Source: an uncultured Chloroflexia bacterium
GTDB lineage: Bacteria; Chloroflexota; Limnocylindria; Limnocylindrales; CSP1-4
Length of the DNA stretch: 64,000 bases
Direction: 5' to 3'
Assembly: GCA_963752475.1 (NCBI GenBank)
Contig: CAVVYR010000004.1
Location: 96,001 to 160,000 of the forward strand
Part shown: positions 3,153 to 41,130 of the stretch, in pieces
Layout of the letters: the number at the start of each line of letters is the position of its first letter
Numbering within the stretch: the first letter of the stretch is position 1
The notes under the pieces: model-generated
The model's database searches: none
Told to the model about the DNA's origin: nothing
Seen by the model: only the letters and a program-made list of their open reading frames with translations
Made by a program: the position numbers and the translations under genes

Positions 3153-3562
3153 CGCGCCCCGCGGTCGGCCTGCTGGACACGAGCGTGGTCATCCACCTGG
3201 AGGGGATCGATGAAGCAGGAACACTGCCTCGTCAGCCGCTGGTCTCCGCCATCACCCTGGCGGAGCTGTCGGTCGGGCCGCTGGTTGCGCCACCGGAGCA
3301 ACGCCCGGCGCGCCTGCGCCACATCCAGACGGTGGAGTCCGACGTCGACCCACTGCCATTCGACTCTCGTGCGGCGCGGGCCTTCGGCCACGTCGCGGCC
3401 TCCATGCGGCACCTCGGACGCAAGACGTCTGCCCGCACGTACGACGCCATGATCGCAGCGATCGCACTTGCCAATGGGCTACCGCTGTACACGTGCAATC
3501 CCCGCGACTTCGAGGGCATCGATGGCCTCGAAGTCATCGCTGTGCCGGTGCCGGGCCGATGA
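3149..3562 (+). CDS. vapC: PIN-domain toxin VapC
   Basis: LLDTSVVI, SAITLAEL, DAMIAAIA, LYTCNPRDF acidic PIN motifs. Confidence 0.9.
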   Translation: MTRPAVGLLDTSVVIHLEGIDEAGTLPRQPLVSAITLAELSVGPLVAPPEQRPARLRHIQTVESDVDPLPFDSRAARAFGHVAASMRHLGRKTSARTYDAMIAAIALANGLPLYTCNPRDFEGIDGLEVIAVPVPGR

Positions 3563-4608
3563 CCAGACGCAGGCTCATCGGGGCGCGGCGCGATCAGGGC
3601 CCGCAGTACCTGCTCATCACCATCGCCAGCTTCGCGGTCACGGTCGCCGCAACCCGCTGGTACCTGGACCTGTCCGGCTACCCCACGGTCGGCGGCGGTG
3701 AGCTCCACGTCGCCCACGCGCTGTGGGGCGGGCTGGCGCTCGTGGTCGCAGCGATCCTGCCCCTGCTCTGGGTCGGGCACCGCTCGCTGGTGCTCTCGGC
3801 CCTGCTCGCGGGCCTCGGCGTGGGGCTCTTCATCGATGAGATCGGCAAGTTCCTGACCACATCGACCGATTACTTCTTCGCACCCGCGGCGCCGATCATC
3901 TACGGCGCCCTCCTGTTGCTCGTCCTGCTCTGGCTGCTGCTCAGGCGCTCGAGTGGTGATGCCCTCGACGCCACGCATGCGGTCATCGACTCCCTCGGTC
4001 ACGCGGTCGATGGTCGCCTCACCGCAGGAGAGCGCGATCGAGTGATCCAGCTGCGGCACGACGCGGGCGAGCCGATCCCCGGCGGGATCCATGCCCAGCT
4101 GCTGGCATTGCTGGAGTCGCAGGCCATCGAGAACCGGCTGGTCACAGCCGGGCCGCTCGCCAGCGGGAAGGCCCGGCGCTGGCTCGAGCGCTGGCTGCCG
4201 ATCCGGCTCGAACGTTTGGTGGTCTACGCCGGCCTCACGCTCTCGGTCCTGACGGCGCTCGTCTCAGGGCTCGGCTTGGTCGCGCTCACCACGATGCCTG
4301 ACGCGAACTTGCTACAGGACATCGACGCCGGGCGCATCGAGTTCCCGGACGATCTGCGTTGGATACTCGTGATGCTGGGCATCTACGTGGTTACCGGCGT
4401 CACGGCCATGATCGCCCTGGCGCTCCGAGTGCGCGGCTCGAGACGCTGGCTGGATGCGGCGCTCGCAGCGGTGCTCCTCGACCTCGTGGTGGGCGAACTG
4501 GTGGCCTTCTACGCGGCCCAGTTCACCGCCCTCGCGAGCGCGGTCTGGGGCGTGATCCTGCTCGGGCTGATCGTCGACCTTCGGATCCGCGAACGCTCCA
4601 ACTGGTAG
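3559..4608 (+). CDS. Multi-pass membrane protein of unknown function
   Basis: About 8-9 hydrophobic segments; ELHVAHALWGG and GLFIDEIGKF motifs; ATGA overlap with vapC. Confidence 0.75.
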   Translation: MTRRRLIGARRDQGPQYLLITIASFAVTVAATRWYLDLSGYPTVGGGELHVAHALWGGLALVVAAILPLLWVGHRSLVLSALLAGLGVGLFIDEIGKFLTTSTDYFFAPAAPIIYGALLLLVLLWLLLRRSSGDALDATHAVIDSLGHAVDGRLTAGERDRVIQLRHDAGEPIPGGIHAQLLALLESQAIENRLVTAGPLASGKARRWLERWLPIRLERLVVYAGLTLSVLTALVSGLGLVALTTMPDANLLQDIDAGRIEFPDDLRWILVMLGIYVVTGVTAMIALALRVRGSRRWLDAALAAVLLDLVVGELVAFYAAQFTALASAVWGVILLGLIVDLRIRERSNW

Positions 4609-36628: not shown

Positions 36629-37609
36629 ATGTTCAAGAAGAAGCAGACCGCGCTGGCGCTCAGCGCAGCCCTCGCCATCTCCGCCGCCGGCGGGGCCGTG
36701 GCGACGGCACAGGACGAGGGCGGCATGATGTGCGTCATCGTCCCGCCGGTGGAGAACCCGTTCTTCGGTGCCATGCAGCAGATCGCTGCGGACAAGGCCG
36801 AGGAGCTCGGCTACACCACCGACCGCCTGGTCCACAACGACGACGCCAACATGCAGCTGGAGCTCTTCGAGAGCTGCATCGCGCAGGGCGCGGTCGCCAT
36901 CATCCTCGACAACGCGGGCGCTGACGCCACCGTGGCTGCGGTCCAGGCCGCCGCCGACGCGGGCATCCCCAGCTTCCTCGTCGACCGCGAGATCACGCAG
37001 GACGGCGTGGCCGTCGCGCAGATCGTCTCCAACAACTACCAGGGCGCCACCATCCTCGCCGAGTACTTCGCCGAGCTGATGGATGAGGAAGGCACCTACA
37101 TCGAGCTGACCGGTCGCGACACGGACACCAACGCACAGGTCCGCAGCCAGGGCTATCACGACGTGCTGGACGAGATCCCCGAGATGGAGATGGTCGCCCA
37201 GGAGACCGCGAACTGGAGCCAGGACGAAGGCTTCCAGGTCACCGAGGCCCTCCTGCAGGCGAACCCCGACGTCAAGGGCATCATCGCCGGCAACGACACC
37301 ATGGCGCTGGGCGCCCAGGCCGCGATCATGGCCGCGGGCATGGACGACGTCATCGTGGTGGGCTTCGACGGCTCTGACGACGCCATCATCAGCATCGCCG
37401 CTGGCGAGCTGAAGGCCACCTCGCTCCAGCCGGTCGCCGAGATGGCGCTGCAGGCTGCGATCCAGGCCGATGAGTACATCAAGGCCGGCGGCATGACCGA
37501 CATGGAGGAGCGGCAGTCCATCGACATGGTCCTGCTGACCCCCGAGAACGCATGCGACTACTACCAGTTCGCTCCGGTCGAGCCCGGCACGAGCCCGAAC
37601 TGCCAGTAG
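36629..37609 (+). CDS. Sugar ABC substrate-binding protein, D-apiose-binding-like
   Basis: NPFF, IILDNAGADA, LVDREI, QIVSNNYQGA, DTNAQVRSQGYHDV, ANWSQ, GNDTMA, GFDGS resemble recalled sequences of characterised apiose-binding proteins. Confidence 0.8.
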   Translation: MFKKKQTALALSAALAISAAGGAVATAQDEGGMMCVIVPPVENPFFGAMQQIAADKAEELGYTTDRLVHNDDANMQLELFESCIAQGAVAIILDNAGADATVAAVQAAADAGIPSFLVDREITQDGVAVAQIVSNNYQGATILAEYFAELMDEEGTYIELTGRDTDTNAQVRSQGYHDVLDEIPEMEMVAQETANWSQDEGFQVTEALLQANPDVKGIIAGNDTMALGAQAAIMAAGMDDVIVVGFDGSDDAIISIAAGELKATSLQPVAEMALQAAIQADEYIKAGGMTDMEERQSIDMVLLTPENACDYYQFAPVEPGTSPNCQ

Positions 37610-37627
37610 CAGCACTCACATGAGCCT

Positions 37628-37655
37628 CGGCCGGCGCTCCTGAGGGTGTCGGCCG
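37628..37655 (+). terminator. Hairpin after the substrate-binding protein gene
   Basis: CGGCCGGCGC-TCCTGAGG-GTGTCGGCCG inverted repeat. Confidence 0.4.
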
Positions 37656-37727
37656 GCGCTCCTCCTTCACGGCCGCGCGCACTGCCCAGCACGGCAGGGC
37701 GCGCGGTCTTCTTGTGTCTCGAAGGGG

Positions 37728-37803
37728 TGGTAGGGGAGCCAGGACTCGAACCTGGAACCAGTCGGATATAAGCCGACCGCTCTAACCGTTGAGCTACTCC
37801 CCC
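37728..37803 (-). tRNA. tRNA-Ile with UAU anticodon
   Basis: GGGGGAG TA GCTC AACGGTTA GAGC G GTCGG CTTATAT CCGAC TGGTT CCAGG TTCGAGT CCTGG CTCCCCT A CCA; full 76-nt cloverleaf, encoded CCA; upstream extended -10 TGCTAGCAT (37825-37833). Confidence 0.92.
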
Positions 37804-37846
37804 ATGGCATCGAGGTCGCCGCCGATGCTAGCAGGGCAGCTGCCGT

Positions 37847-38260
37847 CTACGGCAGGAGCGGGCGCAGCACCTGGTAGACCACGACCAGCGCGAGGTAGCA
37901 GATGGGGATCGCGGCGAACAGGCCGAGCATCCCGGCCCACGCTGAACGGCGCTTCTCCCCCGGTACGCCCGTGGGCAGCTCCACCCAGAGATAGGTGAAG
38001 ATCGTGCCGCTGAGGATGACCACGACCACGTAGATGGCCGTGGGCCCGATGCCCGCGAAGAACGCCGGCAGCTCCCCGTGGTCGGCGAGCCAGTCGATGA
38101 GCAGCAGGATGACCCCGCCGATACCGGCCACGAGCAGGTTGGCAACCACCGCTCGTACCACCGGCTGCGGGGCGTTCGTCGCCTGCCGCCAACGGACCTC
38201 CAGCTCCGATCGTTGTTTGACCTCACGTGGCGGCGGCTGCTGCTCAGGCGCGTCGGTCAC
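37847..38260 (-). CDS. Small three-TM membrane protein
   Basis: VTDAPEQ...VVANLLVAGIGGVILLLI...; GTGA overlap with the upstream gene. Confidence 0.65.
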   Translation of the reverse strand: MTDAPEQQPPPREVKQRSELEVRWRQATNAPQPVVRAVVANLLVAGIGGVILLLIDWLADHGELPAFFAGIGPTAIYVVVVILSGTIFTYLWVELPTGVPGEKRRSAWAGMLGLFAAIPICYLALVVVYQVLRPLLP

Positions 38261-39411
38261 TGGTCCTCCTCGGGGTCGATGGGTCCGCTGATGACCGTCA
38301 GGCTCGGTCGGCGGGGCAGGGTCTCGGGCGTGTGGACCGCCAGCTCGGCGACACGCGCCACGAAGCGGTCGATCTCGCTCTCGCGGTTCCAGGCACCGAC
38401 GCTGACCCGGATGAGATCGGCCTCGGTGTCGGTCTCGACCATAGCGAAGATGCTGCGACCGAGCTCCTGCGCGACCGACTCGGCGCTCCAGCCCTCGATG
38501 CGGAAGGCCGCGATGGCAGCGTGAGCCACAGGATCGGCGACGAGCTCGAGGCCATCGATCGCGCCGAGGTCCTCGTAGAGCTGGTCGGCCAGGGCCAGCG
38601 TGCGGTCGAGCGCCCACGGCAGCTCCACGAACATGAGCAGCCAACCGACGCTCCGAGCGAGGGCCAGCAACGTTCCACGTGCGAACGGCGCCGACGCCTG
38701 CCGCAGCCACTCGGGCAGCTCGCGATCGAGCCCAGGCGTGATCCACAGCGCCGCCACCGCGTCCGGTCCCAGCAGCCAGCGATGGCTCTCGGTGACGACG
38801 AAATCGGCCCCGATGTCGTCGACGTCGAGTGGCATCACACCGGCGGAGCGGGAGACGTCCAGGAGCAGCCGGGCATCAGCCCCGCGCGACGAGGCAGCGA
38901 TGACCGCAGGATCAGCCAGACGACCATCGGCATCCACGTGCGTCATCACCACCAGCGCCGTGGCAGCATCGAAGACGTCTGGGGGCTCGGTGAAAGCGTC
39001 GACCTCTGCTCCGGCGACCTCGGCAACGTCACGGACGGCAGCCGCGATGGCTCGATCGACACCGGGGAGCAATGCCACCCGCTGTCGGGCGCCGGACTCG
39101 AGCACCTCGATGGCCACCAGGCGCGCGGCCTCCGCTGCCCCGTGGGTGAGGATGATGCGCTCGGGCGCCGCGCTGAGTACCGCCGCGATCACGGCCACCG
39201 CCTCACGCTCGCGCTGTCGCAGGTCCTCGTCCCTGTCGGGGCCGACCCGTCCCACCCGCAGCTCCATGTCGTCCGACTCGTGGACCGCAGCCATCGTCTC
39301 GGCCGGCAGCGGCCCGGACTGATGCGTGGCGAGGTAGATGCCGGCGCCGGTCGCGCTCAGCACCTCCCGCAGCCCGCGGACGCGGTCGAAGCGGGATGGG
39401 GGCTTGCTCAT
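38257..39411 (-). CDS. Aminotransferase class V fold protein with degenerate active site
   Basis: IYLATHQSGPLP, THGAAEA, LLDVSRSAG, ESHRWLLGP, IRVSVGAWNRESEIDRF. Confidence 0.75.
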   Translation of the reverse strand: MSKPPSRFDRVRGLREVLSATGAGIYLATHQSGPLPAETMAAVHESDDMELRVGRVGPDRDEDLRQREREAVAVIAAVLSAAPERIILTHGAAEAARLVAIEVLESGARQRVALLPGVDRAIAAAVRDVAEVAGAEVDAFTEPPDVFDAATALVVMTHVDADGRLADPAVIAASSRGADARLLLDVSRSAGVMPLDVDDIGADFVVTESHRWLLGPDAVAALWITPGLDRELPEWLRQASAPFARGTLLALARSVGWLLMFVELPWALDRTLALADQLYEDLGAIDGLELVADPVAHAAIAAFRIEGWSAESVAQELGRSIFAMVETDTEADLIRVSVGAWNRESEIDRFVARVAELAVHTPETLPRRPSLTVISGPIDPEEDQ

Positions 39412-41130
39412 GTGCCCATGGTGCCATCGGTGAGGATGCCGAATCGCCCGGCGACCTGTAGACGCTCGTGCAGCGTGGCCACCGTGCTCAGGCGGTCGAC
39501 CTCCGAGGGTGGCTTGTCGTCGCGGATGCGCACGATGCGCGGGAAGCGCAGCGCGAACCCCGACTTGTGCCGTGAGCTGGCATGGACGACATCGAAGGCG
39601 ATCTCGACCACGACCGTCGGCTCCACCGACCGGTAGCGCCCGAACCGCTCGACCGTATGCGCCTCGAACCACTTCGTCATCTCGGCGATCTCGGCATCGG
39701 TCAGGCCGCTGTAGGCCTTGCCCACGTTGACCAGCGCTCCTTCGGCCGTGCCGGGCCGGTCGTCGATGACCGCGAAGGTGTAGTCCGAGAGCACGCCGTG
39801 CCGTCGGCCATGCCCGACCTCCACGCCCACGACCACGCAGTCGAGCGTGGTCAGCGCCTTCTTCAGCTTCAGCCAGGCGTAGCCACGCCGGCCGGGAGCG
39901 TAGATCGACTCGGGGTCCTTCAGCATCAGCCCCTCGTTGCCTCGCTCCTGGGCCTCGTTGAAGATCCGCTCCAGCTCGGCCTCGTCGGCGGCATCGACGA
40001 GCGCGGCCAGACCGAACCCGGGCGTCGTGGGCAGGTCCAGTGCCTCCAATCGACGTCGACGCTCGCGCAGCGGTTCCCGGAGCAGCGGCTCGGACGGGCT
40101 CCCCTCCCCCAGCGCGAGTGCGTCGAAGGCCACGTAGATGACCGGCACGTCCGCGAGCACCTGCGCGGACGGTTTCTTGCGGCCGATGCGGGTCTGGAGC
40201 TGCAGGAAGGGCAGGACCAGGCCGTCCTTCCAGGCCAGGATCTCGCCGTCGAGGATGCCCTCCCAGGCCGCGGCACGAGCCGCGTCCACGATCTCGGGGA
40301 AGCCGCCGGTGATGTCGTTGAGGTCACGGCTGAAGAGACGCACCTCGTCGCCCTGGCGGTGGAGCTGTGCGCGGATGCCGTCGTACTTGTCCTCCACCCA
40401 CACCGGCGGTGCCAGTCGCTCAAGCGCCTCCGCCTCGTCGGCGACCGGGCTGGCCAACATCGACTTGAGCGGGTGAAAGAGGGAGAGTCGCACCGTGTCG
40501 AGAGCATCGTCGCCTGCCAGCTGCGCGGTGCGGCCGATATCGCCGGTGAGCATGCCCGCCCACTGCACGGCAGGCCAGGTCCTGCTCGAAGGCCCGGGCG
40601 ATGCCCTTCTCGAGGTGCCCGTCGCGGAGCCCGATGCGCAGCTCGCCACCGAGGATGGCGGTGAGGTAGCGCGCGCTCAGCGGATCGGCGCGTCTCAGTA
40701 GCCGGGCGAAGACCTCAGCCTTGGCGTCGCGCCCGCGGGTGGTGGCCAGGCGATCGTAGGCCTCGGCGACCTCGGCCAAGGCCAGGGGCCGGCCGTCGGG
40801 TTCGTGGCCGGCCTCGGCGAGCAGGTCGCCCACGGCGGTGCCCACGTCGGACGAACGGTCGTAGGCGCGGCCCATGGCGCCGGCATCAGCGCCAGCCACC
40901 TCCTGCACCACGGTCGTGATGGCTCGCCAACCGAGTCCGGTCTTGCGCTGGTCCCGCTCCGGGAATGGCCGCCCGCTCAGGAAGACGGCCGCGATGGGCA
41001 GAGCGGCCTCGTCGAGCGCACGCAGGTACTCGGCCACGATGGCCGATTTCTCCGTCGTCTTGGGCGTAGCCCGGATGGCCTCGGCGGTCTCCGCCCAGCG
41101 GAGCATGGTCCCGGTATCCTTCGGCGTCAT
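39408..41130 (-). CDS. ATP-dependent DNA ligase, frameshift near 40570
   Basis: N-terminal DNA-binding domain (GELRIG); EDKYDGIRAQ, LDGEI, AFD, EGLMLK, WLKLK, LRFPRIVRIRDDK. Confidence 0.88.

Follow-up and report, generated by a model that had tools for sequence, protein, structure and literature searches.

A tRNA-Ile(UAU) gene as the probable sole reader of AUA in a Chloroflexota order without detectable TilS

How is the codon AUA read in a bacterium in which the enzyme TilS cannot be found? This question is raised by a tRNA-Ile gene with the anticodon UAU, located on the minus strand at positions 37728..37803 of the window, by which we mean the whole stretch of 64,000 nucleotides analysed here, from an uncultured bacterium of the phylum Chloroflexota. 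In print, TilS is regarded as essential and nearly universal; it was found in 98.18% of bacteria and has been called 'evolutionarily stable' (PMC6063277), and tRNA-Ile(UAU) has been termed a rare case (PMC13752280); these and the other papers cited below are drawn on through excerpts of their text and tables, and statements that rest on them hold for those excerpts. Our analysis indicates that the window's tRNA is very probably the only isoleucine tRNA that decodes AUA in an order from which TilS and the tRNA it acts on, tRNA-Ile2(CAU), have both disappeared. The mechanism is a known one in a new lineage and, given a lineage-specific feature of the anticodon loop, could perhaps count as a variant. 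A literature search that left most subscription journals outside found no account of TilS loss in Chloroflexota.

Structure and conservation of the tRNA-Ile(UAU) gene

ARAGORN predicted a single tRNA within the window, a tRNA-Ile with the anticodon TAT on the minus strand. The 76-nt gene also matched the full Rfam model RF00005 with 70.4 bits, compared to a gathering score of 29 (E-value 9.7e-15). Its acceptor stem, GGGGGAG/CUCCCCU, contains the pairs G1.U72, G4-C69 and G5-C68 and is followed by A73 as discriminator and by a CCA encoded in the gene. The anticodon loop reads C32 U33 U34 A35 U36 A37 U38, with the anticodon at 37768..37770 (U34 at 37770) and U38, the 3' loop base opposite C32, at 37766, all on the minus strand. 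A first-pass annotation made from the letters of the window had described an intact cloverleaf with the loop CUUAUAU, A73 and encoded CCA, and U38 instead of A38; ARAGORN, Rfam and the sequence of the window copy bore it out on each of these points. E. coli TilS recognises the pairs C4-G69 and C5-G68 as determinants; these had been noted as missing from the tRNA, and they are indeed replaced here by G4-C69 and G5-C68.

To place the gene among its relatives, we aligned 34 distinct copies, which represent 10 genera of the order. C32, U33, U34, A35, U36, A37 and A73-CCA were invariant in all 34. The cloverleaf stems covary: 99.7% of the cells were paired and both-sided changes were observed in 10 of the 21 pairs, a level of covariation reached in none of 500 shuffles, and the paired share dropped to 38-58% when the alignment was slid. 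Elements recognised by the isoleucyl-tRNA synthetase (IleRS), namely U12-A23, C29-G41 and A73, had been proposed for this tRNA, and all three are present in the window copy. U12-A23 was found in 34/34 copies (and G1.U72 in 33/34), whereas pair 29-41 varies in the order (CG in 17, GC in 16 and AU in 1), so that C29-G41, an element of E. coli IleRS recognition, does not hold as a conserved element. As judged from these alignments, purifying selection acts on the tRNA, and its stems show compensatory changes. Of 24 relatives in the genus, 21 gave a BLAST match to it with 92-100% identity. Identical TAT tRNA cores on two contigs were seen in one genome of the family (G059:C1:192864 and G059:C2:2849), the gene being single-copy in the other genomes of the order.

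The first-pass annotation had also asked for a check of base 34. Contigs from three public runs belonging to three studies (X1, freshwater sediment; X4, salt marsh; X15, a sediment RNA library) contained no variant letter at 37766-37772; contigs of run X17 did not cover the gene. One 79-nt contig of X4 matched the gene exactly, and another contig of the same run was a variant with a compensatory change of pair 30-40. Furthermore, ARAGORN called TAT at 32 of 32 loci, 22 of them in the window's own genus (the window's genome counted) and 10 in the order's second genus, g2, and likewise in copies from 24 further relatives. The anticodon TAT is thus upheld by both the public contigs and the loci of relatives, and no CAT was seen.

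TilS, CAU tRNAs and the meaning of AUA

The genome from which the window comes, hereafter the host genome (G000), is a metagenomic draft of 4.25 Mb in 38 contigs, with 68% GC, 88.8% completeness and 5.8% contamination. Genomes of this lineage, recovered from sediment and soil metagenomes, measure 2-4 Mb at 68% GC; those of genus g2 measure 1.0-1.4 Mb at about 63% GC. TilS (TIGR02432, PF01171) was not found in the host genome, in a search that was positive in 14 of 14 control genomes, nor did it exceed the cut-off in any of 41 relatives. MnmA, a PP-loop enzyme related to TilS, scored 318.8 bits in the host genome, indicating that enzymes of this kind are detectable there. The archaeal TiaS domain PF08489 had no match in the host genome, and four archaeal controls were positive.

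We then drew 151 genomes of the class that were at least 80% complete: 51 from the window's own order (the host genome, 44 of family f1 and 6 of family f2) and the others from the sister families f3 (49), f4 (50) and f5 (1). TilS exceeded the curated cut-off in 90 of the 151, all 90 within the sister families, and at E<=0.001 it was found in 46/49, 48/50 and 1/1 genomes of f3, f4 and f5, respectively. Over the cut-off, it was found in none of the 51 genomes of the own order, where the only matches scored below 25 bits and were to other PP-loop genes. A phylum-wide draw of 301 genomes (300 at least 90% complete, plus the host genome at 88.8%) gave the same picture: TilS was present in 275 of the 301, with 0/20 in the own order (the host genome and 19 relatives at least 90% complete) and 275/281 elsewhere. 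These tallies include genomes flagged as unpublished (G136, G103, G168, G158, G132, G123, G208, G417, G328, G325 and G409); none belongs to the own order, and the conclusions are unchanged if they are removed.

The TAT tRNA showed the opposite distribution. Our first class-wide search pattern allowed A or T at position 38 and was replaced by a pattern allowing any base there; the five genera that the former had missed all carry the TAT tRNA, with C38. The revised pattern matched 45 of the 51 genomes of the own order (the host genome, 39/44 of f1 and 5/6 of f2) and none of the 100 genomes of the sister families (0/49, 0/50 and 0/1). Within the class, the distributions of the TAT tRNA and of TilS are mirror images of each other.

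The loss of TilS goes along with a smaller set of CAT tRNAs. ARAGORN made 50 tRNA calls in the host genome, a few of them spurious, and the genes with anticodons ending in AT comprise one GAT, one TAT and two CAT. One CAT gene is of the initiator type (its anticodon stem has three G-C pairs) and the other of an elongator type with the acceptor strand GGCUGGG. Five TilS-bearing genomes of the class contain 3, 3, 3, 3 and 2 CAT tRNAs, which fall into an initiator class, a GGCUGGG or GGCGGAG class, and a GGGCCC class, in which C4-G69 and C5-G68 are present. In the window's family, five genomes lacking TilS contain 2, 2, 2, 2 and 1, never including the GGGCCC class. From this distribution, and from the C4-G69/C5-G68 rule, which we take to apply here, the GGGCCC class reads as tRNA-Ile2(CAU). 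With regard to the origin of tRNA-Ile(UAU), its 70-74% identity to the GGGCCC-class CAU tRNAs of the sister families equals its similarity to unrelated tRNAs, and more broadly its 70-75% identity to tRNA-Ile1 or the CAU classes is no closer than that to unrelated tRNAs.

Several features of the CAT tRNAs were observed in passing. In the sister families, tilS lies directly downstream of an elongator-Met-type CAT tRNA of the GGCUGGG or GGCGGAG class (L047-L049, in G084, G076 and G093; G043:C1; G054:C4; G126:C1; G153:C50), and in family f3 the initiator tRNA gene is found about 600 nt further upstream. The f3 elongator CAT tRNA (L047-L049) has the T-loop GTCCGAA, with a C in place of the near-universal U55 (pseudouridine). 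In initiator-type tRNAs (L096, L097, L100 and L107), position 1 varies (C, G, A or U) and its partner A72 stays fixed, and the initiator tRNA of the host genome (G000:C6:28462-28536) has G1 opposite A72 instead of the usual C1.

AUA is rare in the host genome and is used there. In a set of 3187 genes obtained with a home-made codon-log-odds scorer of open reading frames (ORFs), ATA occurred 421 times in 358 genes, that is 0.38 per 1000 codons and 0.8% of the isoleucine codons, which makes it the second rarest sense codon after TTA. The example given in the first-pass annotation, at 4363-4365, is an in-frame ATA within the ORF 3493-4608 (plus strand), which matched no Pfam family. We examined orthologue columns for genes up to 40 kb on either side of the tRNA in 10 genomes of the same genus, requiring at least 55% identity over at least 100 residues, keeping the best match per genome and excluding first codons. 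Of 81 ATA codons, 22 had at least three orthologues: 8 stood in columns with an isoleucine majority, 5 in columns with an ATG majority and 9 in other columns. Some columns were otherwise entirely ATC, as in the QRQRVA-I-ARA motif of an ABC transporter (7/7). All five ATG-majority columns contained an isoleucine codon elsewhere, compared to 150 of 2471 (6.1%) for ordinary ATG codons, an outcome with a probability of about 8e-7 if sites are independent. ATA thus occurred at methionine sites only where isoleucine is tolerated, as expected if AUA means isoleucine, and the codon appears to behave as isoleucine in these columns. ATA was hardly ever conserved between species, suggesting that it is a short-lived codon.

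Together, the lack of tilS, the presence of two CAT genes only, the mirror-image distributions of TAT tRNA and TilS, and the use of ATA as isoleucine support the TilS-independent route of AUA decoding that the first-pass annotation had proposed. It had named tilS together with a tRNA-Ile2(CAU) as what would speak for the contrary; neither was found in the host genome.

Decoding mechanism, rival explanations and position 38

The IleRS of the host genome (1186 aa) contains the domains tRNA-synt_1 and Anticodon_1 and a C-terminal DUF5915, and lacks a Zn-finger C-terminus; in the NCBIfam ranking, ileS came first, followed by the MupA and MupB models. By these sequence features it is a type-2, eukaryote-like IleRS. 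Its best ESM-Atlas cluster is found most often in Chloroflexota. DUF5915 was found in 150 of the 151 class genomes, TilS-bearing families included. MnmG was not found in the host genome, nor in any of the 61 class genomes searched (60 at least 90% complete, and the host genome), and nine controls were positive. Since MnmG is missing throughout the class, U34 cannot carry an xm5 ((c)mnm5) modification, which leaves room for other chemistry at this base. Both traits, the type-2 IleRS and the missing MnmG, are class-wide and therefore older than the switch in AUA decoding, and they look like pre-adaptations to it.

We propose that the tRNA would be transcribed from its own TAGCAT -10-like promoter and charged with isoleucine by the type-2 IleRS, as we infer from what has been published on Bifidobacterium and Neorickettsia, and that U34, free of xm5 modification, would pair directly with the A of AUA. 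A UAU anticodon with unmodified U34 reads AUA and, only weakly, AUG (PMC3575796; PMC3919564). Misreading of AUG would presumably be limited by this weak binding to G and by competition from tRNA-Met. A pyrimidine at position 38, replacing the strong C32.A38 pair, could possibly limit it as well, which is the least supported step of the scheme. The switch from CAU plus TilS to UAU would have occurred at the stem of the order, when the IleRS was already of type 2 and MnmG already absent.

Comparable systems are few. The published list of genomes without tilS comprises nine genomes in three clades, seven of mycoplasmas or Neorickettsia and two of bifidobacteria, and the published tilS-minus gene set is GAT 1, TAT 1 and CAT 2 (Taniguchi 2013, PMC3575796, Supplementary Table S1). 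Mycoplasma mobile shares with our lineage the lack of tilS, this same gene set, a UAU tRNA as sole reader of AUA, and C32, U33 and A37 in the loop (Taniguchi et al. 2013, PMC3575796). In contrast, it is a parasite with a reduced genome rather than a metagenome lineage of 2-4 Mb and 68% GC, its IleRS is of the bacterial type 1 adapted by Arg865 rather than of type 2, and its tRNA carries A38 and t6A37 where position 38 is here mostly U or C. Bifidobacterium and Neorickettsia come closer, with no TilS, a TAT tRNA, two CAT genes and a type-2 IleRS (PMC3575796). They belong to a different phylum, and here the loss spans an order (TilS in 0/51).

A laboratory suppressor of a B. subtilis tilS deletion, tRNA-Ile1 with G34U, similarly uses an unmodified U34 to read AUA strongly and AUG weakly without TilS (Kohrer et al. 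2014, PMC3919564); that mutant derives from tRNA-Ile1, to which the present tRNA is not especially close. The TilS/tRNA-Ile2(LAU) system of the sister families also reads AUA as isoleucine; here, both the enzyme and the substrate tRNA are missing, and G4-C69/G5-C68 stand in place of the C4-G69/C5-G68 of the sisters' GGGCCC class. Ktedonobacter racemifer, the only member of the Chloroflexi on the published TAT list (PMC3575796), likewise has a TAT tRNA, but it keeps tilS and four CAT genes, so that its TAT gene is redundant and not a replacement.

In one rival reading, TilS and tRNA-Ile2(CAU) were missed in an incomplete bin and the UAU tRNA is a redundant extra, as in Lactobacillus casei and Ktedonobacter. 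The bin indeed has a completeness of 88.8% and a contamination of 5.8%, assemblies frequently miss tRNA genes, and redundant TAT genes beside tilS are on record, that of Ktedonobacter among them (Taniguchi, Supplementary Table S1). We nevertheless consider this reading very improbable, given the absence of TilS from all 51 genomes of the order with all 90 strong matches in the sister families, the phylum count of 0/20 as against 275/281, the two CAT classes in four of five TilS-less genomes (one in the fifth) as against three in four of five TilS-bearing ones, and the complementary distributions of TAT tRNA and TilS. We also give very little credence to the idea of an accessory tRNA outside core decoding, acquired recently with a mobile element or phage. 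In tblastn searches, the same aminotransferase-like gene lay beside the tRNA across the loci of the genus and the family, which argues for vertical inheritance, and the neighbours are ordinary genes (sugar-binding protein, aminotransferase, DNA ligase). Furthermore, divergence of the tRNA tracks relatedness, with compensatory changes, and the gene is nearly always single-copy throughout the order. What speaks for an accessory role is the presence of a TAT tRNA-Ile in two TilS-positive mycobacteria (L043 and L045), where it is not needed for AUA; these copies have A38, unlike the tRNA of the order.

If AUA were reassigned, for example to methionine, or effectively unassigned, the tRNA would be no isoleucine acceptor. 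In pairwise comparisons, ATA was indeed partnered with ATG 25 times and with ATC 21 times, and it is the second rarest sense codon and hardly ever conserved between species. This excess of ATG fits G-to-A transitions at isoleucine-tolerant methionine sites rather than reassignment, as the 5/5 ATG-majority columns with an isoleucine codon (6.1% for ordinary ATG) illustrate. ATA also stands in otherwise all-ATC columns such as that of the QRQRVA-I-ARA motif, and known isoleucine tRNAs of this kind likewise have A73 and the UAU anticodon (PMC3575796), which makes reassignment highly unlikely. Another scenario has a non-homologous C34-modifying enzyme, TiaS-like or novel, turning a CAT tRNA into the main AUA reader and leaving the UAU tRNA a secondary role. 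Archaea do use an unrelated enzyme, and homology searches could miss a novel one. Yet PF08489 was not found in the host genome, the CAT set consists of an initiator and one elongator class that are both needed for methionine, and the class lost along with TilS is precisely the one carrying C4-G69/C5-G68; we find this scenario scarcely credible.

A role of tRNA-Ile(UAU) as sole AUA reader thus remains the reading that we favour, and several points weigh against it. The host genome is a draft in 38 contigs, with the completeness and contamination given above. Three of the 24 relatives in the genus gave no BLAST match to the tRNA (G003, 74% complete; G006, 64%; G010, 91% in 3 contigs), and the TAT pattern was unmatched in six of the 51 genomes of the order (G085, G096, G125, G131, G154 and G029). 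Contigs of an oligo-dT RNA library that lie over the gene (depth 2.5) derive from a relative, so that transcription is not proved. The labels GGGCCC/tRNA-Ile2 and GGCUGGG/elongator-Met are drawn from distribution and the assumed determinant rule instead of an isotype model, the gene sets rely on a home-made ORF scorer, and isoleucine charging of the tRNA by the type-2 IleRS is itself inferred.

If this reading holds, a whole order of free-living, high-GC bacteria has switched its AUA decoding across a clean phylogenetic boundary, with the TilS-bearing sister families as natural controls and two class-wide pre-adaptations still visible. In such lineages, the absence of TilS should not be scored as incompleteness, and neither TilS-targeted antibacterial ideas nor rules that annotate a CAU tRNA as tRNA-Ile2 would apply. 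The conserved change in the anticodon loop, moreover, provides a concrete hypothesis, testable in the laboratory, on how misreading of AUG is avoided.

That change concerns position 38. Of the 13 tRNAs with U36 in the host genome, 12 have A38, the sole exception being tRNA-Ile(UAU) with U38. Counted by eye in 46 pattern matches from the order, position 38 was U in 20, C in 25, G in 1 and A in none; U38 or C38 was uniform per genus in the copies seen, barring one G38 copy in genus g5. The 32-38 pair tunes affinity for the A site, and a strong C32.A38 pair raises both affinity and misreading (PMC4238358), so that its replacement could plausibly make U34.G pairing with AUG less favourable. The first-pass suggestion that an atypical loop limits AUG reading is plausible in this light and gains some support from the 0/46 count of A38.

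A bolder version is that C32.Y38 (Y, pyrimidine) is a selected fidelity device that lowers affinity for the A site, perhaps altering or abolishing t6A37, and that the same solution arose independently in the Saccharibacteria; we hold it as a tentative idea and think it rather unlikely. Two Candidatus Saccharibacteria records contain TAT tRNAs with U38 and C38, in genomes without TilS. In a draw of 151 genomes of the Saccharibacteria class (within G450-G604), the TAT pattern was found in 117 genomes with 123 matches, and TilS exceeded the cut-off in 10, of which 9 lacked the TAT pattern. At least one other uncultured lineage thus commonly decodes AUA without TilS; here again, no report of TilS loss was found in a literature search that left most subscription journals outside. 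By eye, position 38 of the 123 matches was C in 58, A in 53 and U in 12, a pyrimidine in 70. Y38 is therefore frequent in this class and not obligatory, which tempers the fidelity hypothesis. The 53 copies with A38 count against it, as do the single G38 copy in the order and the A38 with t6A37 of M. mobile, whose tRNA is the only biochemically characterised bacterial one of the kind (PMC3575796). If true, the Y38 device would let an unmodified U34 read AUA and not AUG on an ordinary ribosome and could account for the loss of TilS in free-living bacteria whose genomes are large; TilS-free AUA decoding would then be a widespread alternative state of the code machinery, beyond a few parasites.

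The locus and its surroundings

A -10-like element, TGcTAGCAT, lies 21 nt upstream of the mature 5' end of the tRNA (37825..37833, minus strand). The first-pass annotation had credited the gene with an extended -10 element of its own. The sequence is present as described, and TAGCAT recurs in the upstream 90 nt of 27 of 54 relatives, 6-54 nt from the mature 5' end; a simple sigma-70 consensus scan, on the other hand, called no promoter there. TAGCAT was found in none of the 54 downstream regions and not on the other strand, and shuffles gave a mean of 0.3 with a maximum of 2, which suggests that the element is the tRNA's own probable promoter. In the leader of one relative (L012, G004:C183), the 9-nt unit CAAGGCAGC occurs in four tandem copies between TAGCAT and the tRNA.

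On the other side of the gene, 22 nt past the CCA end, a GC-rich hairpin is predicted at 37672..37706 (minus strand; -37 kcal/mol, z -3.07). It has no T-run and was not called by a terminator scan. From its modelled folding, it may be a terminator or a processing signal, shared with the convergent sugar-binding-protein gene downstream of the tRNA (36629-37609). Between the hairpin and the stop of this gene, two copies of a 14-nt direct repeat, GGAGCGCCGGCCGA in the minus-strand reading, are found at 37624-37670.

The upstream neighbour is the class-V aminotransferase-like gene at 38257..39672 (minus strand; Pfam PF00266, E-value 2.6e-19). Upstream of the tRNA, its ORF shares about 490 nt with another minus-strand ORF (37847-38746) in a different frame. 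Both ORFs match in relatives; the overlap may be genuine or may result from a frameshift or a wrongly called start.

Elsewhere in the host genome, identical tRNA-Pro(CGG) genes are found on two contigs (G000:C5:71768-71844 and G000:C32:16385-16461), one of which may be duplicated or a contaminant, in line with the estimated contamination of the assembly. At G000:C10:18947-24010, three ARAGORN calls within 5 kb, one of them a chimeric 'tRNA-Leu', have in common the 3' half of a tRNA-Gln(CTG); these repeats look like attachment-site copies left by integrating elements.

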